From: Chloroflexota bacterium
GTDB taxonomy: Bacteria; Chloroflexota; Anaerolineae; Anaerolineales; UBA4823
Direction: 5' to 3'
Assembly: GCA_012516075.1 (NCBI GenBank)
Contig: JAAYXE010000093.1
Span: forward strand, 879-64,878
Length of the DNA stretch: 64,000 nt
Made by a program: the position numbers and the translations under genes. A model generated the notes under the pieces. The model was not told where the DNA came from and ran no database searches. It saw only the letters and a program-made list of their open reading frames with translations. This document shows, in pieces, positions 17,827-44,892 of this stretch (position 1 is the first letter of the stretch; each line of letters begins with the position of its first letter).

Positions 17827-20800
17827 TCAATGGAAACTGCCTGACCCGATGCCGCGCAGGAAACTGCGCCGCAGGGTCTTGTTCTTCAGCCGCCGGTCGA
17901 TAGAAGCGGCGATTTCCTGCGCTTCTCGCTGCAGCGCCTCGCTCCACTGGTCATCCCCATTCTGCACCAGCAGCGCGCTTAACTGCTGGCGTGCCTGGAT
18001 GCGCCCGGGCGGGTAGCACATCGCATCGGCCAGACGCAGCGCCGCTTCCAGCTCAACCCTGGCTTTTTCCGCATCCCCACCGGCTATATACAGCCCGGCC
18101 TGAAGCATGTGACCGCGCTGCAGGTATTTGCGTGCCCGGGTCCTGCCCGCAATTTGAAACAGCTCCTCCACACCCTGCTGCGCCTCTGCGAGCTGGCCAG
18201 TGGATAGATGCAGCCGGGCGCGCGCATCGGCCAGCCGGGTGCGCCAGCGCCAGTCGTGAACGCCGTATTCCGTGAGCCCCAGGCTCTCTTCGCAGGCCTG
18301 GATGTACGCCAGCGCCTCATCCAGCCGTCCCAGGCCGATGCAGTCCAGCGCCAGGTTAATCTGCGTGCTGATTTCAATCTCTTTGAACCCGGTTAGCGCC
18401 CGGGTGGGTTCCAGGCCCGACAGGTCGATGGCGTAGGCCGTCTCCCAGTCACCCAGTTCAGCGTGCAGCCAGCCAAGCTGGTTGATATGGCGCGCCGCCC
18501 AGGGAGAATCAATCTCATCGGCCGCTCTTTTTCCGGCTTCCAGATCGGCCAGCGCCTGATCATAATTGCCCCTGCCGCCCTCAGCCAGCGAGAGAATGTA
18601 GTTCAGCACGATGGAGATCCGCCGGTTGCCGGTCTGCCGGGCCAGCTCAACTCCCCGGCGGGCGCGCGCTGCGGCACGCCAGAACAGCCCCATAAAGTTG
18701 TCCTGCATGGCCAGAAAATGCAGGCATTCGGCCTGCAGAGACTGGCTCTCCGGCTGGGTCCGGCTGTGCACCAGCACGGTCTGCAGGCGCTTCTGAGCCG
18801 GGATCAATTCACCGGCGTTTTGCAGCGCACTGCTGAGCACAATGGCCGCCCGGATCGCCAGCAGCGGATCGCCAAGCGCGCGGGCTTTCTCTTCCGCCTC
18901 TCTGGCGAGGGCAATGCTCTGTTCACCCTGACCGCTGCTCCACAGCAGCCAGGCAAGATAGGCCAGCAGGCGTGTTTCGTCCGCTTCATAACCGAGCTGG
19001 CGCGCCAGCTCGAGCGCCTGTTCATAGTCAGCCCGCGCCTGCGCAAACAACCCCTGAAAGAAATAAACCTGGGCCCGCCCTTCATGAATCTTAAGCAGAT
19101 CTCCGGGCAGGTCCCGGGCATATGGCAGCGCTTTATTGAAGTACTTCAAGGCATCGGCATGGGCGAAGAAACGCACAGCCTGAGCTGCAGCCAGGCGGTA
19201 GAAGTGGTAGGCGCGCTCATCACCGGCCATTTCGTAATGGTAGGCCACCAGAGCAGCCTGGCTTTCTGGCCGCCGGCCGGCGATCGCCTCGAAGACCTCC
19301 CCTACCTTCCGGTGGTAGGCTTTTCGCTGCCTGGTGATTATCGAACGATAGGCAGCCTCGTGCGCCAGCGCATGGCGAAAACGGTATTCCTGGCCGTCGC
19401 CGTTCAGCGGTACGATCAGATTCAACCGCTGGAACGTCTCCATCTGCGCCGGTAAATCAACCTCTTCATCCAGGACACGCACCAGCACCTGAGCAGAAAA
19501 AGAGCGTCCAATAACGGAGGCGACCTGCAGCGTACGCCGGCCTGGTTCGCTCAAGTGGTCCATGCGTGAGACCAGCAGTGCGTGCAGGCTGTCCGGAATA
19601 CGCAGGTGATCTTCTTCGACCCGCGCCTTCCTGTCCTGCAGCAGCATGCCGCTCTCCAGCAGCGACTGTACAACTTCGCGGATATAAAGCGGATTCCCTT
19701 CGGCTTTCTGCAGGATCTGCGCGCGCAGCTCCTGGGACAGGCTGGCGCCGGGAAACCGGCTGTGCAGCAGGCTGTCGATCAGCTCTCCCCCTTCGGTTTC
19801 GCCCAGAGGAGCCAGGTTGATTTCTTTATAGGCTGTTGAATAGTTACTTCTGGCATGCTCAAGCACATAAACAGCCGGCGACTGCTCTTCCGGACGGGAG
19901 GCGCACAGGAAGAGCACCGGTGTTTCCTTCACCAGTTGGAACAGATGCACGATCAGCTCCGCCGAACCTGCATCGACCCACTGCAGATCGTCGAAGACGA
20001 TCACGGATGGCTGGTTTTTAAAACGGATCTCCAGCAGCCGGTAGACGATCTCGAACAGCTCGCGTTTAAAGCTCTCGCCCTGCAGCACAGTGTTACCGGA
20101 ATCCGGATCATCTCCACCAAAAAGAAGAGAATAAATTCGCACAGCCCGCGAGCGCAGTTCAGGGTCATAGTAGCGCAAAAAATGGGTCAGCTTGTGCTCA
20201 ACCTGCGCAGCGCTGTCCGTCTCCTTAATGCCGCTCTCGGCCTGCACGTGCTGGCGGAACTGCTCATACGGCCGGCTGGACGCATACGCAGCCGACCGGA
20301 TGTGCATCCAGCTCACATCCGGTTCCGTACCCGCATGTCGTGCAGTCTCGTGCTGCAGGGCCTCGATCAGGCGGGTCTTCCCCAGGCCGGCTTCGCCCAC
20401 CAGAGAAACGATCTGTCCCTGCCCTGAGGTGACCCGGAATACTGCATCCCGCAGCGCGGCCATTTCCGGAACGCGTCCCACCAGGGGCTGCTGCGCTTCC
20501 GCCAGGTAAATCGGTTCGTTCCCCGTCCGGAACCCCAGCACGCGGTAAGCGTTCACGCGCGCTTCCTTGCCCTTCACCTCGATGGCCCCCAGCGGTTCCA
20601 CTTCAACCAGGGAGGCGATCAGGCGGTAAGTGAATTCAGAGATCTGGACCGTCCCCGGGCGGGCGGTCTGTTCCATGCGCGCGGCCAGGTTGATGGCGTC
20701 ACCCATGGCGGTGTACTCCCAGCGCTGCTGCGTGCCCACGCTCCCGACCACAACAAGCCCGGTGTTGATCCCCACGCGCACGTCAAAATCGAGCCCGCGT

Positions 20801-21351
20801 TCCTGCTTCAGCTTCTGGCGGTAGATCTGGATTCCGTCCACGATTTCCAGCCCTGCCCTGACCGCCCGCTCGGGATCGTCTTCGTGCGCTGAAGGCGCGC
20901 CGAAAAACGCCAGCACGGCGTCGCCCATCATGCGCGGGATTGTGCCGTCATAGCGCAGGATGGGCGGGATCAGGTAACCAAATGCGCCGTTCATTATTTC
21001 GGCCCACTCTTCGGGATCCAGCCGCTCGGCCATCGCCGTGGAGCCTTTGACATCACAGAACAGCATGGTGACCACCCGCCGTTCTCCGACCAGGCTCCCA
21101 TCTTCCGGCGCTTCCTGCAGGCGCTCGAGCAGCTCCTGGGAGATGTATTTCTGCAGGCGCGGCTGCAGTTCAGCCTGTGCAGACACAGCCCGGCCGCAGC
21201 GGATGCAGTAGTTCGCAGACGCAGGGAGCATCTCCCCACACTCCGGACACAGCACGCGCCCGGTCAGGGGCAGGCCGCAGCGGCAGCAGAAGTTCGCCCC
21301 AACAGGGATGGCTGAATAACAGCGCGGACAGGTTTCTGGTTGATCGGTCAC
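17827..21351 (-). CDS. Double zinc-ribbon / class III adenylate-guanylate cyclase / AAA(P-loop) ATPase / TPR multidomain signalling protein
   Basis: N-terminal CPRC..CCRC and CPEC..CIRC ribbons. Cyclase core (TMLFCDVKGST, MGDAVLAFFGAP, VRVGINTG, GDAINLAARME). P-loop GEAGLGKTRL. Long C-terminal TPR-like helical repeats. GTG start. Confidence 0.85.
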   Translation of the reverse strand: MTDQPETCPRCYSAIPVGANFCCRCGLPLTGRVLCPECGEMLPASANYCIRCGRAVSAQAELQPRLQKYISQELLERLQEAPEDGSLVGERRVVTMLFCDVKGSTAMAERLDPEEWAEIMNGAFGYLIPPILRYDGTIPRMMGDAVLAFFGAPSAHEDDPERAVRAGLEIVDGIQIYRQKLKQERGLDFDVRVGINTGLVVVGSVGTQQRWEYTAMGDAINLAARMEQTARPGTVQISEFTYRLIASLVEVEPLGAIEVKGKEARVNAYRVLGFRTGNEPIYLAEAQQPLVGRVPEMAALRDAVFRVTSGQGQIVSLVGEAGLGKTRLIEALQHETARHAGTEPDVSWMHIRSAAYASSRPYEQFRQHVQAESGIKETDSAAQVEHKLTHFLRYYDPELRSRAVRIYSLLFGGDDPDSGNTVLQGESFKRELFEIVYRLLEIRFKNQPSVIVFDDLQWVDAGSAELIVHLFQLVKETPVLFLCASRPEEQSPAVYVLEHARSNYSTAYKEINLAPLGETEGGELIDSLLHSRFPGASLSQELRAQILQKAEGNPLYIREVVQSLLESGMLLQDRKARVEEDHLRIPDSLHALLVSRMDHLSEPGRRTLQVASVIGRSFSAQVLVRVLDEEVDLPAQMETFQRLNLIVPLNGDGQEYRFRHALAHEAAYRSIITRQRKAYHRKVGEVFEAIAGRRPESQAALVAYHYEMAGDERAYHFYRLAAAQAVRFFAHADALKYFNKALPYARDLPGDLLKIHEGRAQVYFFQGLFAQARADYEQALELARQLGYEADETRLLAYLAWLLWSSGQGEQSIALAREAEEKARALGDPLLAIRAAIVLSSALQNAGELIPAQKRLQTVLVHSRTQPESQSLQAECLHFLAMQDNFMGLFWRAAARARRGVELARQTGNRRISIVLNYILSLAEGGRGNYDQALADLEAGKRAADEIDSPWAARHINQLGWLHAELGDWETAYAIDLSGLEPTRALTGFKEIEISTQINLALDCIGLGRLDEALAYIQACEESLGLTEYGVHDWRWRTRLADARARLHLSTGQLAEAQQGVEELFQIAGRTRARKYLQRGHMLQAGLYIAGGDAEKARVELEAALRLADAMCYPPGRIQARQQLSALLVQNGDDQWSEALQREAQEIAASIDRRLKNKTLRRSFLRGIGSGSFH

Positions 21352-32605: not shown

Positions 32606-32957
32606 AATCCGGTTCCGGTGGTGTATCAGGGTTTCCGTCCAATCGTCTAACCTGTAATCAGAACACGAATGTAGCTTGCAGGTTGATTAATGTATACATT
32701 GTATATCATGAGGCTCTGGCGGCCGGAATAAAATGTTAATTAATAATTGCATACGATTATGATTTACCAGCCGGTGGTTATAAAATCAACGGAATGTGAT
32801 CCGTAAACTGAAACGGGGGAGACCCCTGAAAGACCCATCCAACCGGATCTCTTGCCGGACCACCTTTCTCAGCAATATCCGTGGAATGCAATTATCTGGT
32901 CGTCAAAAAATCCTGCTCGTCGAGTGCCATGTTGTGGTCGCTGCTGCTCATTAAGCG

Positions 32958-32997
32958 AGCAATGGGATGGCCCGGCATACCGGGTCATCCCATTGCT
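32958..32997 (-). terminator. Strong hairpin downstream of the giant ORF (terminator-like, no clear U-tract)
   Basis: AGCAATGGGATG(G)CCCGG cata CCGGG(T)CATCCCATTGCT, about 60 nt after the stop at 33055. Confidence 0.5.
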
Positions 32998-33054
32998 TTC
33001 CGTTCCGAGAGGCGTGTGCCCTGACCTCTCCAGCGGAGCCCCAAAAGCTGTGTG

Positions 33055-36000
33055 CTAACCGGCAGTTCTGTGCTTCGCCGGCTTCAAGATAGACCTCATA
33101 ACCGCCCGGTGGTGTTTCCCCGAGTTTGCCGCCGGCGCTCGCAGCAGCTGCGTCTCCGGGATCGAGGACGAGATCTCCAGCTTGTGGTAGGCCGGCCGGA
33201 TGAAGAAGATGTCTTCGCCAATGCTGGCGAGGATCTCCTCCAGCACGCCGGCATTCACCAGGCTGGGCCCGAAGAGACCCAGCGGGCCGTAGATGTGACA
33301 CGGAGCCGATGAATAGAGCAGCTGTCCGTTGACGTAGAGCTCGTAAGCGGGGAAGCCGTCATGCCGGCTGTCGGAATCGATGTAGCAGCGCACCATTCCG
33401 GAAAGCCCCATGTTCTCCAGCCGTACCTTCAGGTCGGCATCGATGCCGGGAGCGAAGTTCTCGAAGGTCCAGTGTTCCGCCGGGAGCGTGGCGTTGATGC
33501 GGAACCTAACGGTGAGCGTCGATGCGGTGGACCCTTCGAACTTCACCTCGATGTTCGGTGGAACCGCGGGAAGGGTGTTCTCGGTAAAAGGAACGCTTCC
33601 TGGCAGCAGGGTATACGCCCAGGGCTGGAACCCGGACGAACAGGCGGGTACAGGGCTCTGGTTCGCATCCAGGTCTTCGCTGTTGTACTCACGCGTCGGG
33701 CCAAATTCTGCGAGGGAAAGCAGTCCACCCGGGAAGGGGATGATGGCATCCTCGGGATGCGGGCCGCGCGCGGGGTCCATGGCCACTTTTACGATCGCCT
33801 GAGCCCGGTGGCTGCCGCTGTTATACGAAAAGCCCCGGTTATCTCCGCCGATCGAATACTTCGCCATATCGTCAATAAACGGGAGCATCGCAGGATTGAC
33901 GACACTGAAAACACCCTTCAATGCGTCAACCACCGGCGGTGGAATGGCGACGACCTCAGAAGGGATAAAGAGACGCAGTTTGATCTCCAGATTCGGAAAG
34001 ATCGAGGACTGTCCCGGCAGGATGTCATCGAGGTCTACGGGGGATGAGCCATTTCCGTTCGAGACCGGGGCGCCCATCGCGCCCGTCCCGGCCTGATCGG
34101 TCACCGGGATGGTGCCGCCGTTCGTATTCTCCTTGACCTCATCCAGGTATTCCACCGTGGCGCCCTGTTCGGTGAGCGTGTTGGGCGGGTCGGCGATGTT
34201 GCTGCTCATCGCTGCCCCGACCATCGATGCGACCTGCTGTCCGAGCGATACGGCTGCATTCAGCGCGTTTGCAGCCGCATCGCCGGCCAGGTTGCCGGAC
34301 AGCTGGGCAGTATTGTTGGCCAGTGCGGCCAGACTACCCAGGATGGCTGTAAGCTGAGATGTCTTGGACATGTCGGTAAACATGCTCCCATTCTGGATCG
34401 CTTCAAGGGCCGAATTCAATGAAGTCGGCATGGGGTACTGCGTCGGTGCAATCTGGTTCAACACGCTGACCGGCACCGTCGGCGTCAGGCCTTCAGGCAG
34501 GGGCTGGGCGTAGTCCTGGTTGACATTGACCGGCAGAATTTGCGGGGCAAGATTGGGGATCGGTGAGTCCTGCCAGTTGAAGAAGCGGCGTACGTTGATG
34601 TACTCGGAGGCATTCGACAGCCCGAGGATGGCTTCGGCAAATACGCCGGAAGACGGCAGAAATACCGTTCTCCAGTGATGGCGCTTGCGGATCTCGGTCT
34701 CGTAATCGCGCAGACCCTCGACGTAATCGTTAATCAAACCGCTGATATCATCTTCGCGCGGTCTGGGAAAGTCGAAAGTCCAGTCAATTGTGCCTTCCGC
34801 GCCATCGAGCACCGCACCGTGCGCGGTGTAGTTAATCTGGAGCGTGTTGTTATCTCCCATCACAGCGGTTCCGGTGATCGCCACTGGATTGGTGAACTGC
34901 CGGCCGTTGATCACCTTGATCAGATCGATGGTCCCCTCCACTGCGCGCGCCTTCTTGCCGCCGGCCTGCTCGTCAATGTACAGCGTGATGTTGGCCGTGG
35001 AATAGTTGTTCCCCTTTCCATGCAGAACCGGCTGTCCCCACAGGGTGTACTTACCAGCATTCCTTCCTTTCCGGACAACCTTCTGCTTGATCCCGTTACC
35101 GGTCAGGGCGTTATCAAAATCAAACAGCGGCGCCCGGACTGCACTGAAGAAGTTCTGACCGAGCCTGCGCTGCAGGTCTTCCGGGTCCTCCTTCAGCTTG
35201 AAGATCAACAGATTCTCGGTCAATCCCAGCGGGTTGGGATCAATCAGGGCGCTCAGCGCCAGGGTTTCCGTCGTTCCGAAAATTCCCAGGTGCTCGATGA
35301 TGTCGATTATCTGCTCCTTTTCCACATTCGCCAGCAGGTACTTGGTGTATCCGTACTTGTAGAAGTTGAAATGCGACTCGATTTCTTCGATGACATCGGC
35401 CGGGTTGATGTCGGAGATCGTTGCCAGCTGGGTGTTGATGTGAGCCGTGACGTCGCTGATCTCTTCATCGACCTCGTTCTTCAACTGCCCGTATGTGTAC
35501 GACCGGTTGATGGTCTGCAGCACCACCTGGGTGTTGGCGTTCCGGTCTTCGAGGGTGTACTCGATATCGATCCTCAGGTCGACGGATGCGCTGGTGTTCA
35601 GGATCGAGAACAGGTTGTTGTCGACATCTTCTTTGAGTGCCTCCCGGTTGCTGCCCAGGCCCAGTTCATTGTCGTCGCGGTTGGTATCCGTCACCTTGGG
35701 GGTCTTATTCTCGTCAGACAGGTAGGCCTTCATCGTCTGTTTGAGTTCCGATGTAAAGTCGGACTTCAGGCTGGCCCGGATGCCCTCATCGATCTCGAAC
35801 GAATCGACACCGCCGAACTCGGCCTTATCCAGCACTGCCGTGTCCAGGATATCGTAGCTGATATACGTGCTGCTGCCGGACATCTTGAAGTTCAGGCTGT
35901 CATCCAGATCGAAGCCGGTGATCGCCAGGGTCACTTCAGGATTTGAATCAGTCAGCTTCACGCGGACATTTTCGGAGTACGAGCGCGTGCGGGTGATCTT

Positions 36001-37482
36001 CACCCGGGTGATCCTGACGTCGCCGGAGGCGTCAAAGGCCTCATTTTGCGGGTTGAAGTCCTTCACAACCTGGTCGAACTCGACGAAGCGGCCCGGCATG
36101 ACGCGCTTGATCGCCCGGCCGAAGATATACCAGTAGTCTTTGATCAGATCGATATTGAAGGTGATCGGGCCAAAGGGCAGGAACAGCACCGGATAGAGCC
36201 TTTCCACCGTGGTATCGGTCCGGTAGCTGTGCAGCACTTCGTAGTACTGGATCGTGAGGGCGTGGCTGTGGTTGTAGTTGGTCACAACGCGGGTCTGAGC
36301 GCGCTGCCTTCCCCGCTGCTCGTCTTCGACAATCACGGTGGACATGACCGAGCGCACGTTGGAGGCGTTCTGGACGGTGGAATCCGAGATGTTCTGGACC
36401 AGTTCACCAGCGACCGTGCGTTCACCGCTGGTCTCCGACTGGAGCCGGCCCTGCACCGTCCCGTTGGAATACACCAGACTGCCGCCAATCGAATTGGCAG
36501 CCGAGGCCAGCGCGCTGCCGGCGCCCCGAACGGGCAGGCCAATTAGAGCCGTCAGATCAGCCGCGAGCGATCCACCGCCGGATGCGCCTGCTCCAGCGCC
36601 GCTCACCAGGCCTGCCCCCGTCGTACGCGTGGTGGCATCGACGTCGGTTGAGCCGTAGAGGTGTTCCCGGGCCGTGGTCTGCACGACCTCATTCAGCGCT
36701 CGCACCTGGGTAAATGTCGCCTGCAGTTCTTCGGATACCCCGGTATCCTCATCGCGAGAGCTGCGCTGCCGGCGAAACCAGTCCAGCACTGCGATCTGGC
36801 GCTGCTCTCCGGGCGCCAGCGCCAGGCTGTGGATAATCTCCCCCAGGTTGGTGCCGGCGTTGATCCATCTTTGATGGAAGGAAGCCAGGTAGCCCAGGTA
36901 AAACTTGAACTCCGAGCGGTAGAAGATGTTGATCAGCTCTTCCGCCGGGTCAGGCTCGTCTTTGTCCGAAAAATACGTCAGTTCGTAATCGCTGAGACGG
37001 TAATCCTTCTCCTTTACGTAGTTGCTGAAGCGTACCTGGGTATGGGTGCTGCCGATCAGCTTCGGGATCAACGCCGGAGGAGCGGATGGCTTCTCGTAAA
37101 ACTCCCCGCGGACTGCTTCCAGAATGATCTCCTGTGCCTCCTGATACGGTGGTAAAGCTTCAAGCTGGCTGAGCGTTTGCACGCCGAAGACAGTTTCAAG
37201 CTGGCCGGCAGCGGCTTCGTCGACACTGATCAGGTAGATGATGTCTAATTCGTCCAGCCTGTTGAGGTTATCGGGGGTCAGAGCCTCCTCTTCGATGTAG
37301 TGCTCAAGCCCAGCATTTTCCACATTACCCTGTCGGAAAGCAGCCATGGAATATTCAGCATGCCGGCAGGGCGCAAACTCCGCCATGTCTCGAATGGTGA
37401 AAATTCCAAGCTCATTAAGGGCCTGGATTTTCTCCAGCGTATTGACGGACGGTAATTGAGTGATCGAGTAATACGGTTTCAT
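33055..37482 (-). CDS. Giant orphan protein (1475 aa), function unknown
   Basis: Single uninterrupted ORF. ATG at 37482 with AGGGAG RBS. No signal peptide or TM segment seen. Two HhH-like motifs at the N-terminus and two Gly/Ala/Ser-rich low-complexity tracts. Conserved-looking core VVTNYNHSHALTIQYYEVL. The C-terminal domain carries IGGDNRGFSYNSGSHR and SRHDGFPAYELYVNG. GC is visibly lower than in neighbouring genes. Confidence 0.8.
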   Translation of the reverse strand: MKPYYSITQLPSVNTLEKIQALNELGIFTIRDMAEFAPCRHAEYSMAAFRQGNVENAGLEHYIEEEALTPDNLNRLDELDIIYLISVDEAAAGQLETVFGVQTLSQLEALPPYQEAQEIILEAVRGEFYEKPSAPPALIPKLIGSTHTQVRFSNYVKEKDYRLSDYELTYFSDKDEPDPAEELINIFYRSEFKFYLGYLASFHQRWINAGTNLGEIIHSLALAPGEQRQIAVLDWFRRQRSSRDEDTGVSEELQATFTQVRALNEVVQTTAREHLYGSTDVDATTRTTGAGLVSGAGAGASGGGSLAADLTALIGLPVRGAGSALASAANSIGGSLVYSNGTVQGRLQSETSGERTVAGELVQNISDSTVQNASNVRSVMSTVIVEDEQRGRQRAQTRVVTNYNHSHALTIQYYEVLHSYRTDTTVERLYPVLFLPFGPITFNIDLIKDYWYIFGRAIKRVMPGRFVEFDQVVKDFNPQNEAFDASGDVRITRVKITRTRSYSENVRVKLTDSNPEVTLAITGFDLDDSLNFKMSGSSTYISYDILDTAVLDKAEFGGVDSFEIDEGIRASLKSDFTSELKQTMKAYLSDENKTPKVTDTNRDDNELGLGSNREALKEDVDNNLFSILNTSASVDLRIDIEYTLEDRNANTQVVLQTINRSYTYGQLKNEVDEEISDVTAHINTQLATISDINPADVIEEIESHFNFYKYGYTKYLLANVEKEQIIDIIEHLGIFGTTETLALSALIDPNPLGLTENLLIFKLKEDPEDLQRRLGQNFFSAVRAPLFDFDNALTGNGIKQKVVRKGRNAGKYTLWGQPVLHGKGNNYSTANITLYIDEQAGGKKARAVEGTIDLIKVINGRQFTNPVAITGTAVMGDNNTLQINYTAHGAVLDGAEGTIDWTFDFPRPREDDISGLINDYVEGLRDYETEIRKRHHWRTVFLPSSGVFAEAILGLSNASEYINVRRFFNWQDSPIPNLAPQILPVNVNQDYAQPLPEGLTPTVPVSVLNQIAPTQYPMPTSLNSALEAIQNGSMFTDMSKTSQLTAILGSLAALANNTAQLSGNLAGDAAANALNAAVSLGQQVASMVGAAMSSNIADPPNTLTEQGATVEYLDEVKENTNGGTIPVTDQAGTGAMGAPVSNGNGSSPVDLDDILPGQSSIFPNLEIKLRLFIPSEVVAIPPPVVDALKGVFSVVNPAMLPFIDDMAKYSIGGDNRGFSYNSGSHRAQAIVKVAMDPARGPHPEDAIIPFPGGLLSLAEFGPTREYNSEDLDANQSPVPACSSGFQPWAYTLLPGSVPFTENTLPAVPPNIEVKFEGSTASTLTVRFRINATLPAEHWTFENFAPGIDADLKVRLENMGLSGMVRCYIDSDSRHDGFPAYELYVNGQLLYSSAPCHIYGPLGLFGPSLVNAGVLEEILASIGEDIFFIRPAYHKLEISSSIPETQLLRAPAANSGKHHRAVMRSILKPAKHRTAG

Positions 37483-37714
37483 TCGGTACTCCCTGGAAGG
37501 AACCTTCCTCTGATTTGTTCGCCCCCGCAGTGGACTGCACATCCTGATGGTGTGGTTGAAAGCCGGTCGGTCAGTGAACAGGCAGTGCCCGGGTGGATTT
37601 ACCCGGACTCATTTATCGCTGCGCTGCAAATAAACTTGATGCGTGAATTCACTGGAACTGGCGAATTAATAAGATAAATCGGACCGATTAACATGCTAAT
37701 ATTATGACAACGGA

Positions 37715-37745
37715 CTGTCACGCCGGCGTGACAGGGATGTGACAG
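37715..37745. promoter_or_regulatory. 20-bp perfect palindrome CTGTCACGCCGGCGTGACAG plus a third GTGACAG half-site at the STAND gene start
   Basis: Read directly: the palindrome spans 37715-37734 and GTGACAG recurs at 37739-37745, overlapping the GTG start. The related motifs GGACTGCAC (37530-37538) and GGACTGTCAC (37712-37721) lie in the same divergent spacer. Confidence 0.45.
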
Positions 37746-39604
37746 AGGGGTGGAAAAATTTGGACTCCGTGCGAATATTCCTGTTTGGCTCGCCTCGCAT
37801 CGAACATCAGGGCAAACCGGTCAGTGTCGAACGCCGCAAAGCGTTGTTCCTGGTGGCGTACCTGGCGATGGCGGAGCAGAGGCAGAGCCGTGAGGCGCTC
37901 ACCAGCCTCTTCTGGCCCGAACTCGACCATGTGCACGCGCGCTCTGCGCTGCGGAGTACGCTGCATTCGCTCACCAGAGCGGTCCCCCTGCCCTGGATTG
38001 ACACCGATGCGGTTTCCGTAGCGTTGAAACGGGATATGGTCTGGGTGGACGTCGACGCCTTTATCGGACTTCTGGTTCAGCGCGGCGCCCACAGCCATGC
38101 CCGCAGCACCGTGTGTGCAGAATGCGTGAAACTCAACCAGCAGGCGATTGAACTGTACCAGGCTGATTTTCTGGCCGGATATAACCCATCCTACAGCGGA
38201 GAATTCGATAACTGGCAGCGCACACAGCGGCAGTGGCTGCGCTGGGAGTTCATGGATATCCAGCGCCAGATGTCTGAATACTACGGCGGTAAGGGAGAAT
38301 ATGATCTGGCGATCCGCTATGCGCAGCAGTGGCTCTCTATGGATCCACTGGATGAGAATGCTCACCGCCAGCTCATGCGCCTGCATGCTGCCAATGGCCA
38401 GCGGACCTATGCACTGCGGCAGTTTGAGCAGTGCGTGAAAATCCTGGATGAGGAACTCGCGACCCCTCCCGATGCAGAGACCAGGCTCCTCTACGAATCC
38501 ATCCAGAACCAGCCGGGGGCTGCGAAATTCAAATTTAATACGGCCGAGCAGCCCGCTGCCGTCAGCATTCTGCCGCCTCTGCCTCCCCTGATTACAGGCC
38601 GCAATAAAGAACTGGAAGAGATCAAACGGCGCCTGGGCATTGGCTCCGTCGAGCTGCGCGCCGTCACGGTTATTCAGGGCTGGCCGGGTGTTGGAAAAAG
38701 CACGCTGCTGGCAAAGCTCGCCCACGATCCTGAGGTTGCGGGCCAGTTTCCCGATGGAATCTTCTGGGCTTCGCTGGGTGAATCCCCGGACATCTATGGT
38801 GAGATCTCCGCCTGGGCCGATGCACTCCTCCCTGGTGGTCCGGGCCGGATCCAGAACCCGGATGAACTGAGAGCCCAGCTTACGGCGGTGCTGCGCGACC
38901 GGCGTTCTCTCCTGCTGCTGGATGACGTCTGGCAGATTGAGCACGTGCAGCCGTTCCGTGTGGGCGGGCAGCACTGTGCGCTCGTCATCACCAGCCGGCT
39001 GAACGACGTCTCCATCGAACTCGCCCCCACCGCAGGCGACATCTACCGGCTGCCAGTGCTGTCCGAGGAGGCCGGGCTCGACCTGCTGGGGAAGCTCGCC
39101 CCGCAAATGCTGCAGAAAGACCCCCGGGCAGCGCGTGAACTGGTCCACGACCTGGAAGGCCTGCCCCTGGCCATCCACGTAGCCGGTCGTCTGCTGCAGA
39201 ACGAAGCGCGCCTGGGATGGGGCCTGCGGGAGCTGCTGGCGGAGCTGCGCAGCGGTGCAGCTCTGCTCAACGCGCCTGCACCCAGCGACATGCACGCTGC
39301 CCGGCAGGCTGCCTCGCCCACGGTGGCAGCGCTGTTAAGACGCAGCACCGATCTGCTGGATGAGGAAACCCGCAGGAAATTCGCCTGCCTGGGGCTGTTC
39401 GTCCCAAAACCGGCCACATTCGACCTGCAGGCAATGGCAGTAGCATGGGGGGTTGATGACCCCCGTCCTGCTGCACGCCTGCTGGTCAATCGCGGGCTGC
39501 TCGAGCCGGTAAGTGGCGGCCGTTTTCAGATGCATGCGCTGCTGGTCATGCATGCCCGCTCTCTGCTGGATCAAATGAGCGATGGCGACACTCGCACCTC
39601 CTGA
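37739..39604 (+). CDS. SARP-type winged-helix/BTAD transcriptional activator domain fused to NB-ARC (STAND) NTPase
   Basis: N-terminal OmpR/SARP-like wHTH (VRIFLFGSPRIEHQGKPV..RRKALFLVAYL). BTAD region (YQADFLAG.., DENAHRQLMRLHAANGQRTYALRQFEQC). P-loop GWPGVGKSTLLAKLA and LLLLDDVW. A TTG start near 37760 is an alternative. Confidence 0.85.
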   Translation: MTEGWKNLDSVRIFLFGSPRIEHQGKPVSVERRKALFLVAYLAMAEQRQSREALTSLFWPELDHVHARSALRSTLHSLTRAVPLPWIDTDAVSVALKRDMVWVDVDAFIGLLVQRGAHSHARSTVCAECVKLNQQAIELYQADFLAGYNPSYSGEFDNWQRTQRQWLRWEFMDIQRQMSEYYGGKGEYDLAIRYAQQWLSMDPLDENAHRQLMRLHAANGQRTYALRQFEQCVKILDEELATPPDAETRLLYESIQNQPGAAKFKFNTAEQPAAVSILPPLPPLITGRNKELEEIKRRLGIGSVELRAVTVIQGWPGVGKSTLLAKLAHDPEVAGQFPDGIFWASLGESPDIYGEISAWADALLPGGPGRIQNPDELRAQLTAVLRDRRSLLLLDDVWQIEHVQPFRVGGQHCALVITSRLNDVSIELAPTAGDIYRLPVLSEEAGLDLLGKLAPQMLQKDPRAARELVHDLEGLPLAIHVAGRLLQNEARLGWGLRELLAELRSGAALLNAPAPSDMHAARQAASPTVAALLRRSTDLLDEETRRKFACLGLFVPKPATFDLQAMAVAWGVDDPRPAARLLVNRGLLEPVSGGRFQMHALLVMHARSLLDQMSDGDTRTS

Positions 39605-41042
39605 ACAGACCTCTGTTCAAATGCAGCTGGCCCGCTATTATCTCCATAAACTGCGTGCAGCTTCCGCAGCCGTCCAGCACGGTCAGGGGAGTGCTGCCTA
39701 TGGCCTCGAGATGCTGAACCAGGAATGGGAGCAAATTGAACACTGGCAGGCATATGCAGCAGAACACAGGAGCCGCGACGCCGGGTGGGCGCGCCTCTGT
39801 ATGGAATTTCCCCTGGCTGGCGTGGAGGTTCTGGCCCTGCGCCAGAGCATAGCCGGGCGGGTGCGCTGGCTGCGTGCCGGTCTGGAAGCCGCAGAGATGC
39901 TCGCAAACGAGCGCGCTGAGCTCGCTATCCTGGATGAACTCAGCGGCGCCTACCAGCTGCTGGGGGATCTCCCTCAGGCGGAAAACTGCGCCACCCGGCT
40001 GCTGGAACGGGCCGAGGCCCTTCAGGACAAGCTGGCCATCGGACGGGCTTATTACCGCCTGGGCAGCCTGGATGAGGAACGCGGCCGTTATCCCCAGGGG
40101 CGCGAAAAAGTCCAGTATGCATTGAACATCTTTCAACAGCAGGGCGCTCAGACCGATGCCGGGCGTGCGCTGCAGCGATTGGGCGCGATTGCCCTTTACA
40201 GCTCAGAATATGAGCAGGCCTACCACCACTTTTCACGTCACCTGGAAATTATGGAAGCCGCAGGCCGTATGAGCGAGGTCTGCACCGGGCTGCTCTCGAT
40301 CGCACAGGCGCTGATGCTGCTCGATGAGATCGATCGTGCTGAGCCTTATATCCGCCGCGCGGTGCAGCTCAGCCGCCTGCTGGGATACCAGCGCCTGCTG
40401 GGCGCCGGTCTGATCATGCTGGGGCAGTGGACTGCCGAGCAGGGTCAAATGGAACAGGAACTGCAGTATTATGCCCAGGGGATCGCCGCAGCCCGCGCTG
40501 CCGGGTCACAGCGCGATGTGATCCACGGTCTCTCGAATTCCGGCCTGGCACGCATGCACAGCGGAGACCTGCAAGGCGCCCTACGGGATCTGCAGGCAGG
40601 GCTGGAACTTGCACGCCAGGCGGGTTTGCCGCGCTTCATCTGCAATCTGCAGCGCAACATCGCCGATGCCTATCTGCTCTCAGGCGAGGCGGAAAAGGCC
40701 CGCCGGCCGCTGGAGGAGGCGCTGCGCCTGGCCGGCGAACAGGGCTCCATTTACCCGGTGATCAAAGCCCTGACCAGTGCAGTTCATTATCTCGTCATCC
40801 AGGAAAGGTTCAGTGAGGCTGCTGTCTGGGCCGGCGCGCTGATCGGCCGCCATGAAGTCGACCAGCGCCTGTTTATACCACTCCTTGCCCGGCTGGAAGC
40901 CGCGCTGGGGAGGGATGTATGCTGGCAGACTTTAAACCGGGGACGCGATATCGACATCCAGGCCAGCCTGCCGCAGATTCTCGAACAGATCGGTCAGCCG
41001 CATTCGGATACCCTGAACGACACCATTCGCCAGACGAAGTAA
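39582..41042 (+). CDS. TPR-repeat protein, apparent C-terminal sensor arm of the AfsR-like STAND, encoded as a separate overlapping ORF
   Basis: It starts 23 nt before the upstream stop in a different frame. There are repeated A..YY..G...A TPR-like units (RAYYRLGSLDEERGRY.., GRALQRLGAIALYSSEYEQA..). Confidence 0.75.
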   Translation: MATLAPPEQTSVQMQLARYYLHKLRAASAAVQHGQGSAAYGLEMLNQEWEQIEHWQAYAAEHRSRDAGWARLCMEFPLAGVEVLALRQSIAGRVRWLRAGLEAAEMLANERAELAILDELSGAYQLLGDLPQAENCATRLLERAEALQDKLAIGRAYYRLGSLDEERGRYPQGREKVQYALNIFQQQGAQTDAGRALQRLGAIALYSSEYEQAYHHFSRHLEIMEAAGRMSEVCTGLLSIAQALMLLDEIDRAEPYIRRAVQLSRLLGYQRLLGAGLIMLGQWTAEQGQMEQELQYYAQGIAAARAAGSQRDVIHGLSNSGLARMHSGDLQGALRDLQAGLELARQAGLPRFICNLQRNIADAYLLSGEAEKARRPLEEALRLAGEQGSIYPVIKALTSAVHYLVIQERFSEAAVWAGALIGRHEVDQRLFIPLLARLEAALGRDVCWQTLNRGRDIDIQASLPQILEQIGQPHSDTLNDTIRQTK

Positions 41043-41092: not shown

Positions 41093-43363
41093 ATGGATCA
41101 TTCAGAACACCGCTCCGGGCGCCCGCACCAAACGGATGAGGATCCGGATGCTGACCCGCATGGTGAAGAGCTCCAGAAACATGGAACCCATCACCAGACG
41201 CACAGGCACGATCACGCGCAGGAAGAGCGGCGTATGGAGGGGCCTCTTCTCAGCGGGGCCATGAATCGCGCTGCCCACGGGCGGGATGTGATCGAGCACG
41301 GCGCTCATATGGAGCACACAGAACACTCTCAGCACGCTGCACATGCAGCAGAGCATACCGGTCATGAAGAGCATGCCGGGCACGGTGCACATGTCGACCA
41401 TACCGGCCATGAGGAGATGTTCCGCCGGCGCTTCTGGGTATCGCTGCTGCTTGCCATCCCCGTGCTGCTCTACAGCCCTGCGGTGCAGGAACTGCTGGGT
41501 TTCACCATGTCGGCTTTCCCCGGCTCGAACCTGATCGAGCCGTTCTTCTCCGTGATCATCTTTCTGTACGGCGGCATTCCGTTCCTGCAGATGGCTGTGC
41601 CCGAGCTGCGCAGCCGCCGGCCGGGAATGATGACCCTGATTTCTCTGGCGATCACGGTGGCTTTTGTTTACAGCCTGGCCGCCCTTTTCCTTCCAGACCA
41701 GAGGGGCTTCTTCTGGGAACTGGTGACTCTGATCGTCATCATGCTCCTCGGTCACTGGCTGGAGATGCGCAGCGTACGCCAGGCATCCGGAGCGCTCACC
41801 GAGCTGGCCAGCCTCATGCCCGACACCGCTGAGCTCATCCGGGCGGACGGCAGCCTGGAGGTCGTGCCGGTGAACCGCCTGCAAAAGGGCGATGTGGTGC
41901 TGGTGCGGCCGGGGGCCAGCGTGCCAGCCGACGGCGAGGTGCTGGAAGGCTCATCGGACGTGAACGAAGCCATGATCACCGGCGAGTCACTTCCGGTGAG
42001 CAAAGACCCCGGCGATAAAGTCATCGCCGGCACCATCAATGGAGGCGGAAGCCTGCGTGTGCGGGTTACTGCCACAGGCGATGAAACGGCCCTGGCTGGC
42101 ATCATGCGCCTGGTGGATGAAGCCCAGCGCTCCAGATCGAACACCCAGGTGCTGGCCGACAAAGCTGCCGGCTGGCTGTTCTACATCGCGCTGGGAGTTG
42201 CTGTGCTTACCGCCCTTGCCTGGACGATCGCCATTGGCTTCAATGTGGAGGTCATCGCCCGTGTGGCCACTGTGCTGGTTATCGCCTGCCCGCACGCTCT
42301 GGGTCTGGCCATCCCGCTGGTCGTCGCCATCACCACTTCCCTGGGAGCGAATAACGGCATCCTGGTGCGTGACCGTTTGGCCCTTGAAGAAGCGCGTCGC
42401 ATCGACACCGTAATCTTTGACAAAACTGGCACACTGACCAGAGGCGAGTTCGGTGTGGTGGGGATCGAAACGGCAGGTGGCTGGGATGAAAACGAAGCCC
42501 TTGCCCTCGCCGCGGCCGTGGAAGGCGATTCTGAGCATACCATCGCCCGCGGTATCCGCAGTTTGGCCGCAGACCGGGAGCTTGCACTTCCCCGGGTCTC
42601 TGATTTTGAAGCCATCAAGGGGCGCGGGGTGCGGGCGGTCTGGCAGGGGCGCGAGGTCTACATAGGGGGTCCGCGCCTGCTGGAAGGCCTGAACCTGAGT
42701 CTGCCGGAGCCGCTGGCCGGTTTTAAAAACCGGGCCAGCACCCTGGGCCAGTCTGTGATTCACCTGGTGGTGGATGGCAGCCTGGCAGCCAGCTTTGCCC
42801 TGGCCGACGTGATCCGTCCCGAGAGCAAGCAAGCTGTCGAGAAGCTGCACGAGATGGGCGTGGAAGTGGCTATGCTGACCGGAGACAGCCAGGCGGTGGC
42901 GGCTGCGGTCGCCGCCGAGCTGGGCATCGACAGCTACTTCGCTGAAGTGCTGCCCGAACATAAAGACCAGAAAGTGGCCGAGCTGCAGCGCCAGGGGAAG
43001 CGAGTTGCCATGGTCGGCGACGGGGTCAACGATGCCCCTGCCCTGACCCGGGCAGATATCGGCATTGCCATCGGCAGCGGCACGGATGTGGCGGTCGAGT
43101 CCGCCGGCATCATTCTGGTGCAGAGCAACCCCCTGGATTTGGTCAGGATCATCCAGCTCAGCCGGGCCAGCTACCGCAAGATGATCCAGAACCTGGCCTG
43201 GGCAACCGGTTACAACGTGATCGCCCTACCCCTGGCGGCCGGCGTGCTGGCTCCATGGGGGATTCTGCTCTCACCCGCCGCCGGCGCGGTGCTCATGTCG
43301 CTCAGCACGATTATCGTCGCCATCAACGCCCAGTTCCTGCGCGGCGAAAGGCTGGCTGCGTAA
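41093..43363 (+). CDS. copB: Heavy-metal P1B-type ATPase, CPH-motif (CopB-like) with His-rich N-terminus
   Basis: N-terminal ~100 aa are very His-rich ([34 protein letters not shown]). TM6 CPH motif ([13 protein letters not shown]), DKTGTLT and [10 protein letters not shown]. Confidence 0.85.
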
Positions 43364-43959: not shown

Positions 43960-44460
43960 ATGAGAATCTTGCGAACGATTTCGCTGTTGAGCGTGCTCGT
44001 GGTGTTACTGTCCGCCTGTGGAACGGCTGCTACACCCGAGCCTGTATCCATAACCATCGAGATGGACGAATTCACATTCACACCCGCCAGTCTGGATCTG
44101 AAGGTAGGGCAGCGGGTCACTCTGGAACTGAACAATAACGGTGCCCTCGCGCACGAGATCATGTTTGGACGACAGGTGATGAACGAAAACAACCGCCCGG
44201 CGGGATACATGGAAGATATGTTCGCTGCCGGCGGCGTGGAGCCGGAAGTCAATATTATTGAAGAGGGGGATTTGACCACGTCAACGGAGACCCATAAGGA
44301 ACATGAAGGGTTTATGGTGATCGTCGGTGCAGGCGGCCGTGCCACCATGACTTTCGACGTCACGGAAGGGATGGCTGGCGAATGGGAGATGGGCTGCTTT
44401 GAACAGGACGGCGTACACTACGACGCCGGCATGCTGGGAACGGTGACGGTCTCTCAGTAA
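43960..44460 (+). CDS. Cupredoxin-family copper-binding lipoprotein
   Basis: Lipobox LLSAC. Blue-copper-like ligand pattern: His in LAHEIMFG, then C-x7-H-x4-M (GCFEQDGVHYDAGM). AGGAGA RBS. Confidence 0.75.
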   Translation: MRILRTISLLSVLVVLLSACGTAATPEPVSITIEMDEFTFTPASLDLKVGQRVTLELNNNGALAHEIMFGRQVMNENNRPAGYMEDMFAAGGVEPEVNIIEEGDLTTSTETHKEHEGFMVIVGAGGRATMTFDVTEGMAGEWEMGCFEQDGVHYDAGMLGTVTVSQ

Positions 44461-44565: not shown

Positions 44566-44706
44566 TTTACTGGGGCTGCTTCGATTGAAATCCTGTTGGG
44601 GATGGGCGCCTTTCTATTCAGGAACGTGGCCTACCCCACAGGATGTATGACGGATACTATTCCCCTATCCCATCAATGACCCATTCCATCAAGCAGGCCA
44701 TGAAGC

Positions 44707-44892
44707 TCAGTTCGGCATCCCCTGGGCGCCGCCCTGATTGCCAGTATACTTCTCCGGCTCTTTGTCGAATGCGCTTTTGCATCCCGGCGAGCAGAAATAA
44801 TACGTCTTACCCTGAAATTCCGATTTCCCGGCTGCAGTCTCCGGGTCGACCGTCATACCACAAACCGGATCGATCTCTGTTTTCATCGCCAT
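44707..44892 (-). CDS. YHS (TRASH) domain metal-binding protein
   Basis: [11 protein letters not shown]...[19 protein letters not shown] is the canonical YHS motif. AAAGGAG RBS. Confidence 0.85.

Follow-up and report, generated by a model that had tools for sequence, protein, structure and literature searches.

Activators of the Streptomyces antibiotic regulatory protein (SARP) type follow a promoter rule in which direct repeats are 11 or 22 bp apart and 8 bp separate the 3' repeat from the -10 element; the centre of the AfsR box at afsS lies at -29.5 (PMC10936776). In the following, we describe a locus on the chromosome of an uncultured member of the Chloroflexota in which the gene of a giant protein faces, across a short spacer with repeats of this kind, the gene of a putative AfsR-like regulator of the STAND class (signal transduction ATPases with numerous domains); it lies within a stretch of 64,000 nucleotides of contig JAAYXE010000093.1, which was analysed as a whole and is called the window throughout. 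For the giant protein, useful points of reference are the colicin-like bacteriocins and the modular bacteriolysins, with muramidase or endopeptidase killing domains, these being single large proteins in which a non-catalytic N-terminal part is joined to a C-terminal wall-degrading domain and which are encoded by a lone, tightly regulated gene. The reading favoured here, to which we give about an even chance, is that a locally recruited, STAND-gated promoter drives a polymorphic giant effector, likely directed at the cell envelope.

The giant gene occupies positions 33055-37482 of the minus strand, stop codon (33055-33057) included, and diverges from the gene of a protein with SARP and NB-ARC domains on the plus strand (37760-39604, 614 residues), which is followed on the same strand by the gene of a tetratricopeptide repeat (TPR) protein (39582-41042, 486 residues) overlapping it by 23 nt in another frame. 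A giant gene facing SARP-NB-ARC and TPR open reading frames (ORFs) had been described in an earlier sequence-only reading, and both the ORF map and Pfam agree with that layout, which recurs on many contigs of the source species, the NCBI proteins NLG72133 and NLG72134 being from this organism. The maximal ORFs extend somewhat further (33055-37542, 1,495 residues, for the giant gene; 37739-39604, 621 residues, for the regulator). The giant gene likely starts at the ATG at 37482, with an AGGGAG ribosome-binding site 6 nt upstream (37489-37494, minus strand), to give a protein of 1,475 residues; the alignment of homologues begins at about residue 5 of this form, which is also the one that public gene calls give. 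For the SARP-NB-ARC gene the TTG at 37760 is the likely start, in agreement with the ATG of the orthologues and with public calls, and its ribosome-binding site GAGGGG (37745-37750, plus strand) is where purine-rich blocks of the orthologues align. The spacer measures 255-277 bp, close to the ~255 bp first reported, whereas the AT-richness then attributed to it is ordinary (GC 0.505 versus 0.60 for the window, with 0.41-0.55 in other intergenic stretches).

Within the spacer, three SARP-type GTnAC boxes succeed one another with an 11-bp period (37713-37745, no strand assigned; cores at 37717-37721, 37728-37732 and 37739-37743), forming a three-box site (37717-37743) without a second example in the window, and the AT-rich TAATATTATG stands 11 nt ahead of them. 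The same series of elements, running from TGnTAnTAT over a constant gap of 11 nt and three CGTnACA boxes to a ribosome-binding site and the start codon, is shared by 13 orthologous loci, in which the three-box arrangement has been kept although the flanking DNA has otherwise diverged, and whatever the leftward gene. The conserved TGnTAnTAT upstream of the orthologues points to a rightward -10 region for the SARP operon (TAATAT/TATTAT with TG ahead, 37697-37705, plus strand); overlapping it, a leftward -10 CATAAT is predicted on the minus strand (37701-37706), 10 nt away from the box 1 core and with TATAnT-type hexamers in the same register in the 13 orthologous loci, there being a good hexamer on each strand. 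A sigma-70-like promoter match on the minus strand (37721-37693) overlaps box 1 and is the only such match on the giant gene's strand in the spacer. With respect to the predicted leftward promoter the boxes are centred at about -25, -36 and -47, and with respect to the predicted rightward one they lie at about +8 to +30. At the level of predicted sites, the sequence pattern of the published SARP rule is present in the spacer and conserved in the orthologues, and the left neighbour is divergently oriented in about 13 of 17 of the latter.

The simplest reading of these elements is a back-to-back control region, by which the regulator would activate the leftward gene and repress itself. A signal sensed via the TPR partner and the nucleotide switch of the NB-ARC domain would turn the regulator on; the SARP domain would occupy the three boxes and activate the leftward promoter in the fashion of AfsR at afsS, in place of a -35 element, and the same occupancy, covering the region from +8 to +30 of the rightward promoter, would lead to self-repression. 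The giant gene would be STAND-gated because it is the leftward gene in this genome; in other genomes the orthologous regulators face other genes, and the giant genes of other Chloroflexota are fronted by SARP-STAND regulators of other lineages that have repeat boxes of their own.

Several further candidates in the same region were given up. Boxes 1 and 2 together make a 20-bp palindrome (37715-37734), and this was ruled out as a window-specific bidirectional operator, since a GTnAC core is already quasi-palindromic; only at its central base does the first box depart from the orthologues, and the palindrome is a by-product. A -10 element that would serve the regulator's own promoter from a place downstream of the boxes was rejected as not conserved. 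To the left of some SARP-NB-ARC orthologues there is a small, conserved membrane ORF of ~60 residues with a hydrophobic C-terminus and the motif F-x-P-W-x-D-x-I-P-L (all on the minus strand: L092, 660-842; L093, 261-443; L097, 6660-6842; L087, 6128-6307), which recalls the way in which afsR and afsS are arranged. As a universal counterpart of afsS, this divergent ORF was nevertheless discarded, as it is found at some orthologous loci only and not in this window.

Regulators and promoters of this type are also found at other giant-family loci of the phylum. At four of eight named Chloroflexota giant loci there are an adjoining SARP-STAND gene (of any lineage), tandem 11-bp repeats, a gap of 7-8 bp and a -10, and these promoters aim at the giant gene or at its operon. 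The STAND regulators of the other loci belong to different lineages, the SARP part being 29-33% identical. In a member of the Chloroflexia (L032), a SARP-STAND gene of 1,057 residues lies directly upstream of the giant gene, and the series TTAGTGGACAT TTTGTGGACAT, 8 bp, TATGAT is found 280 nt upstream of the latter; in a member of the Ardenticatenaceae (L022), a SARP-STAND gene of 1,015 residues is divergent, and the L032 box, 8 bp and TAGGAT point toward a small membrane ORF and then the giant gene; in a member of the Anaerolineales (L172), a BTAD-NB-ARC gene diverges from an operon of an 874-residue, a 527-residue and the giant protein, and three copies of TTGCGAACGTT, 7 bp and TACAAT point at this operon. 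The box common to L032 and L022 is found in no other of 170 loci. Other arrangements are a divergent, split HTH-AAA16/TPR regulator in a member of the Caldilineaceae (L171) and, at the loci of the closest homologues (L079 and L080), an AAA16-TPR-LuxR regulator two genes upstream. With the same detection, comparable DNA (470 kb) gave a background of ~0.15 STAND-like ORFs per 10 kb, against which four to five positives among the eight named loci, within ~5 kb upstream, correspond to a rough binomial p of ~1e-3 for loci that were chosen partly post hoc. SARP-like repeat promoters as a general property of the DNA upstream of giant genes were rejected (2 of 78 loci, versus a background of 0.01 per 750 nt), and such promoters before giant genes are limited to the Chloroflexota cases. 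Thus, it is plausible that giant-family genes have repeatedly come under recruited, STAND-gated SARP promoters within this phylum. As a separate observation, L022 (8230-8280) and L032 (9578-9625) share a near-identical, promoter-like stretch of 36 nt with two TTTGTGGACAT repeats, 8 bp and a -10; the adjoining SARP proteins are 29% and the giant proteins 27% identical, the promoter DNA being far better conserved.

The pairing of these two particular genes is not conserved. Of 86 further giant-family loci, 78 of them from genomes and the remaining 8 on contigs of close or named relatives, not one has an orthologue of the SARP-NB-ARC gene, and all-against-all clustering of the neighbours in 83 loci gave no conserved partner of the family; the four closest homologue loci examined (P0002, P0004, P0005 and P0007, 63-76% identical) have other neighbours. 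Conversely, contigs of the same species excepted, no giant-family gene was found near the SARP-NB-ARC relatives in ~80 metagenomic loci, examined together with three long contigs. The left neighbours of the regulator orthologues vary, and include a NosD/PMP beta-helix protein pair, a 1,637-residue cadherin-like protein, a class-V aminotransferase, an alpha/beta hydrolase, a CHAP protein and the ~60-residue membrane ORF. The giant gene and the regulator are an opportunistic pairing and no fixed two-gene module; the dedicated module of the sequence-only reading did not survive this neighbourhood check in either direction, and its 'novel two-part system' was overstated. Its idea that the STAND protein switches on the giant gene fares better, since the geometry of boxes and -10 and the recurrence in Chloroflexota speak for it and the lack of orthologous synteny against it, which leaves a weaker form of local recruitment. 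A regulatory link between STAND protein and giant gene is plausible in this form, as a local recruitment confined to one phylum.

Several points weigh against such a link. The boxes say nothing specific about the giant gene, because they are conserved whatever the leftward gene; they abut the regulator's own ribosome-binding site, so that autoregulation only, or a role in the 5' untranslated region (5' UTR), is possible; and the quasi-palindromic core makes their orientation ambiguous. The transcription start sites are predictions, and the leftward leader that follows from them, ~210 nt long, contains no recognizable element (no Rfam match; structure z-score -1.16). Furthermore, a STAND neighbour is absent at three named Chloroflexota giant loci (L018, L052 and L062), the association is absent from the giant loci of all other phyla examined, and the background rate given above is a rough one. 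It is therefore possible, if on balance doubtful, that the adjacency is coincidental, the boxes being an autoregulatory operator or a 5'-UTR element and the giant gene having an independent promoter unrelated to the STAND protein. Such an explanation would account for the position of the boxes, which in every orthologue are 15-20 nt away from the start codon of the regulator, for their persistence beside any leftward gene and for the lack of orthologous synteny both ways, and STAND regulators are common in such genomes, the window itself holding a second one (17827-21351). It leaves aside that the spacing from box to leftward -10 is constant in all orthologues and fits the rule for SARP activators, that the left neighbour of about 13 of 17 orthologues is divergent, and that three independent Chloroflexota loci, with other SARP genes, have canonical repeat/-10 promoters toward giant-family genes.

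As to the regulator, the two plus-strand genes appear to encode a split AfsR-like STAND transcription factor, the TPR protein being translationally coupled. Pfam recognizes BTAD (PF03704, E 6.3e-23, residues 103-256) and NB-ARC (PF00931, E 1.5e-24) in the first protein, in the translation of which Walker A (GWPGVGKS) and Walker B (LLLLDDVW) motifs can be read, and TPR_12 (E 2e-18) and TPR_MalT in the second. What had been taken for a single SARP-NB-ARC-TPR unit does contain all three parts, but as two overlapping genes, and the expected winged helix-turn-helix (wHTH) gave no Pfam Trans_reg_C match even at E up to 1. Homologues of the SARP-NB-ARC protein number 547 at E<1e-30, the best ~120 being all of ~608 residues and 57-71% identical, and in nearly all loci a separate TPR gene (~475-490 residues) overlaps or abuts the end of the orthologue. 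A frameshifted AfsR pseudogene is ruled out because the orthologues are uniformly ~608 residues long, each with its own TPR gene: the split is native, and the pair is a two-gene unit conserved in Anaerolineae. The profile of the orthologues matches residues 52-616 of the AfsR structure 8k60 (E 1.7e-27), so that it covers just part of the AfsR DNA-binding domain, and it also matches the NB-ARC parts of Apaf-1 and plant NLR proteins. The pair is collinear with the AfsR model, the SARP-NB-ARC protein at positions 54-613 and the TPR protein at 722-885, and the NCBIfam AfsR equivalog (NF053617) gives 83.2 and 40.4 bits, respectively, with a cut-off of 1430. A literature search combining SARP, NB-ARC and Chloroflexi found no papers.

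Two side observations concern the same protein. Between its DNA-binding part and the BTAD there is an HxH...CxxC motif (H111, H113, C119 and C122, residues ~109-122, encoded at 38084-38125) that is invariant in 20 of 20 aligned orthologues and could be a metal or redox site; copper-type genes lie downstream of the regulator here, in a neighbourhood not kept in the orthologues. Furthermore, many relatives in the metagenome loci L116-L167 match residues ~270-605 only, i.e. the NB-ARC part, and therefore the same ATPase module is joined, in related bacteria, to N-terminal output domains of other kinds.

The giant protein belongs to a large family. A word-indexed search found 132 homologues, the GTDB set of one genome per species (185,579 species genomes) holds 323 loci in many phyla, and a HMMER scan with residues 140-480 returned 2,218 clusters at 50% identity, a family not covered by Pfam, in which the best 150 clusters listed are mostly proteins of 1,100-1,700 residues. 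The giant protein itself has no match in Pfam, NCBIfam, PHROGs or PADLOC, and no Pfam domain or known trafficking module is found in its N-terminal and central parts or in those of 43 relatives. Three descriptions of the sequence-only reading do not hold up: the protein is no 'orphan' in view of these numbers; it is not 'motif-less', ~40 columns being invariant across the family, including LALAPGE (222-226), NYNHxH (402-407) and a block at 943-976; and its gene is not 'compositionally foreign', the G+C content at third codon positions being 0.752, within the 0.64-0.80 of the neighbouring genes. A phage origin was likewise rejected, with no tblastn match in 50,697 phage GenBank records, no PHROG match and one weak locus among the 2.9 million contigs of IMG/VR. 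Members of the family are carried by 33 plasmids, including haloarchaeal plasmids whose copies have a DUF2272 tail. A copy on a Bacillus tropicus plasmid (L169) has SIR2, helicase, AAA ATPase and integrase genes as neighbours, and one on a Haladaptatus plasmid (L170), annotated just as DUF2272, is set among PIN, Fic, CopG and HTH genes; both surroundings look like variable or conflict islands. At L079, L080, L171 and L173 a large protein of secreted or surface type is encoded immediately upstream of the giant homologue, these upstream proteins (PKD-domain, pectate-lyase-like beta-helix or type IX secretion system (T9SS) cargo) being mutually non-homologous.

BLAST coverage, the invariant columns and an AlphaFold2 model (mean pLDDT 72.8) divide the giant protein into a conserved scaffold (residues 1-1140; 34063-37482, minus strand) and a variable C-terminal domain (residues 1141-1475; 33058-34062, minus strand). 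In the model the scaffold consists of an N-terminal helical region (1-125), beta-hairpins of ~30 residues with the invariant LALAPGE and NYNHxH at their tips, a disordered insert rich in Gly, Ser and Thr (237-391), alpha/beta domains modelled with confidence (444-950), the second block of invariant columns (943-976) and a long helix rich in Ala (1041-1090). Its sequence has no match among solved structures. Homologues at 75% identity align over residues 6-1140 only and have different tails; 53 tail types, set behind a Gly/Ser/Pro-rich linker, were counted among 113 homologues. Most of the recognizable ones hydrolyse or bind peptidoglycan or are peptidases (GH25, Amidase_2, Peptidase_M74, HH_signal, DUF2272, OmpA, Peptidase_C11, beta-lactamase2 and SLBB/Poly_export are found in relatives), and one further type has an HExxH motif. 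The tail in the window is weakly homologous to PF11579 proteins (E 2.5e-9; 11.3 bits in Pfam, below the cut-off of 21.1), and the model of this domain matches the structural-genomics protein 3c5p_A (BAS0735; E 2.4e-8, probability 1.00, target template modelling (TM) score 0.63), which probably belongs to DUF3238; a literature search on DUF3238 found no papers.

This architecture suggests, with modest confidence, a polymorphic, envelope-directed effector of bacteriolysin- or toxin-like nature, whose scaffold would see to release, binding or translocation and whose payload would be the C-terminal domain, DUF3238-like in this case. In a more specific form, which is tentative and should be considered unlikely as it stands, the family would be a new class of self-contained polymorphic antibacterial effectors, with a beta-hairpin scaffold that forms an oligomeric piercing or translocating device and with a swappable C-terminal payload, brought repeatedly under ligand-gated SARP-STAND activators in Chloroflexota. 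A toxin-like role has to be set against the following findings: (i) the scaffold fold gave nothing significant in Foldseek searches of the PDB and BFVD, the top non-significant PDB matches being pore-state aerolysin and epsilon toxin (E 0.015-0.05, probability ~0.1-0.2, TM score <0.1); (ii) neither a signal peptide nor a known trafficking domain was found; (iii) there is no conserved immunity gene downstream (+1) across 83 giant-family loci, and no credible ORF for a cognate one in 32606-33054, very small ORFs being left out of this assessment; and (iv) the window protein's own tail has a DUF3238-like fold without known activity.

The regulatory link may also hold while the giant protein is a structural or remodelling protein of the envelope (an adhesin, sheath or wall-maintenance protein), the C-terminus of which anchors or trims the cell's own wall, a rather improbable alternative in our judgement. 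It would accommodate the lack of an immunity gene and the several tails that are wall-binding and not lytic (OmpA, SLBB/Poly_export), as well as the PKD, beta-helix or T9SS surface proteins often encoded just upstream of relatives and the NosD/PMP, cadherin-like and CHAP proteins among the left neighbours of the orthologous regulators. Set against it are the extreme turnover of C-termini on a constant scaffold, typical of conflict proteins and visible already at 75% identity, the patchy distribution (323 loci in the GTDB species set) and the haloarchaeal plasmid copies with a DUF2272 tail, though haloarchaea are not known to have murein.

An anti-phage system of the Avs type, in which the STAND protein would sense a phage protein and the giant protein would act as an abortive-infection effector (e.g. 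a pore combined with a wall hydrolase lysing the cell from within), is very improbable: the STAND and TPR architecture, the long beta-hairpins in a protein without signal peptide, the non-significant likeness to pore-state beta-toxins, the wall-hydrolase tails of relatives and the plasmid copies near SIR2/helicase genes in Bacillus and PIN/Fic genes in Haladaptatus can be cited for it, but PADLOC matches neither the giant nor the NB-ARC protein and gives the TPR protein a generic TPR match only (E 8e-8), the regulator pair, at 57-71% identity and uniform length in hundreds of Anaerolineae/Chloroflexota assemblies, is not patchy like defence genes, transcriptional induction by a DNA-binding output would be slow for abortive infection, the family is missing from phage GenBank with one match in IMG/VR, and the neighbours in the window are metabolic and signalling genes. 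No finding assigns the locus to a catalogued defence system, and the anti-phage or conflict role brought up in the sequence-only reading has no PADLOC signature.

Around the locus, a strong hairpin, with a stem of ~19 positions and no U-tract, is found ~60 nt past the stop codon of the giant gene (32956-32997, minus strand), which may act as a terminator or belong to a repeat and which also gives a sub-threshold, palindromic miRNA-like match on both strands. On the other side, the TPR gene is directly followed by that of a P-type ATPase with a His-rich N-terminus (41093-43363), the first member of a heavy-metal cluster that includes a cupredoxin-like protein (43960-44460) and a 61-residue YHS-domain protein (minus strand, near 44700-44890), and after which come Mrp/Nuo-type antiporter subunits. 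The second STAND-type protein of the window (17827-21351, minus strand, 1,174 residues) combines a double zinc ribbon, an adenylate/guanylate cyclase domain, AAA_16 and TPR.

The interest of the locus lies in the large, unannotated giant family and in the putative SARP-type control in Chloroflexota. If the favoured reading is correct, activation of the SARP/AfsR type operates in this phylum with the promoter geometry of Streptomyces and through a split regulator, which would offer a tractable natural system for studying how a STAND switch is governed by a TPR module in trans; and, should SARP-STAND activators control a family of antibacterial effectors in this way, 'sigma adaptation' of the AfsR type would reach beyond Actinomycetota and beyond antibiotic gene clusters. 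The giant family, for its part, is very large, wholly unannotated and polymorphic at its C-termini, so that, once its function is defined (toxin, lysin and envelope device being the candidates), thousands of giant genes now called 'hypothetical' would be annotated, and a new kind of delivery scaffold could come to light.

Among known systems, AfsR and the large SARPs of Streptomyces (PMC10936776) are the closest to the regulator pair, with the same order of BTAD, NB-ARC and TPR, AfsR as the best match among solved structures, and putative direct repeats of 11-bp period placed, relative to the -10, close to the position of the afs box. They differ in several respects. The TPR part is here a separate, translationally coupled protein, so that the single-polypeptide feature fails; the host belongs to Chloroflexota and not to Actinomycetota, and 83 versus 1430 bits make the protein no AfsR orthologue; there are three boxes instead of two, which are also inside the regulator's own leader; the invariant HxH...CxxC lies between wHTH and BTAD; and the adjacent putative target is neither a biosynthetic cluster nor a small afsS-like gene.

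The giant protein is reminiscent of polymorphic toxins in having a conserved N-terminal part of ~1,140 residues, a low-complexity linker and a highly variable C-terminal domain, some of the tails in the family being wall hydrolases or peptidases, and in its wide but patchy spread, plasmids included. Unlike them, the family has no RHS, filamentous-haemagglutinin, LXG, PAAR or other known trafficking module and no signal peptide, no conserved immunity gene or other neighbour was found for it, and the scaffold fold is without significant match. Compared with the modular bacteriolysins and colicin-like bacteriocins, the family is much larger (1,100-1,700 residues) and unrelated in scaffold sequence, and the tail in the window is DUF3238-like, without known enzymatic activity. 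With the aerolysin/epsilon-toxin family the giant model shares the ~30-residue beta-hairpins and the Ser/Thr/Gly-rich insert, whereas the invariant residues at the hairpin tips are polar (His, Asn and Glu) and not like those of a membrane rivet. Finally, the fold of the C-terminal model, together with homologues carrying PF11579 (E ~1e-9), would relate this domain to DUF3238 as represented by BAS0735 of Bacillus anthracis (PF11579; 3c5p), the known members of which are stand-alone proteins of ~200 residues, while here it is fused to a scaffold of 1,140.

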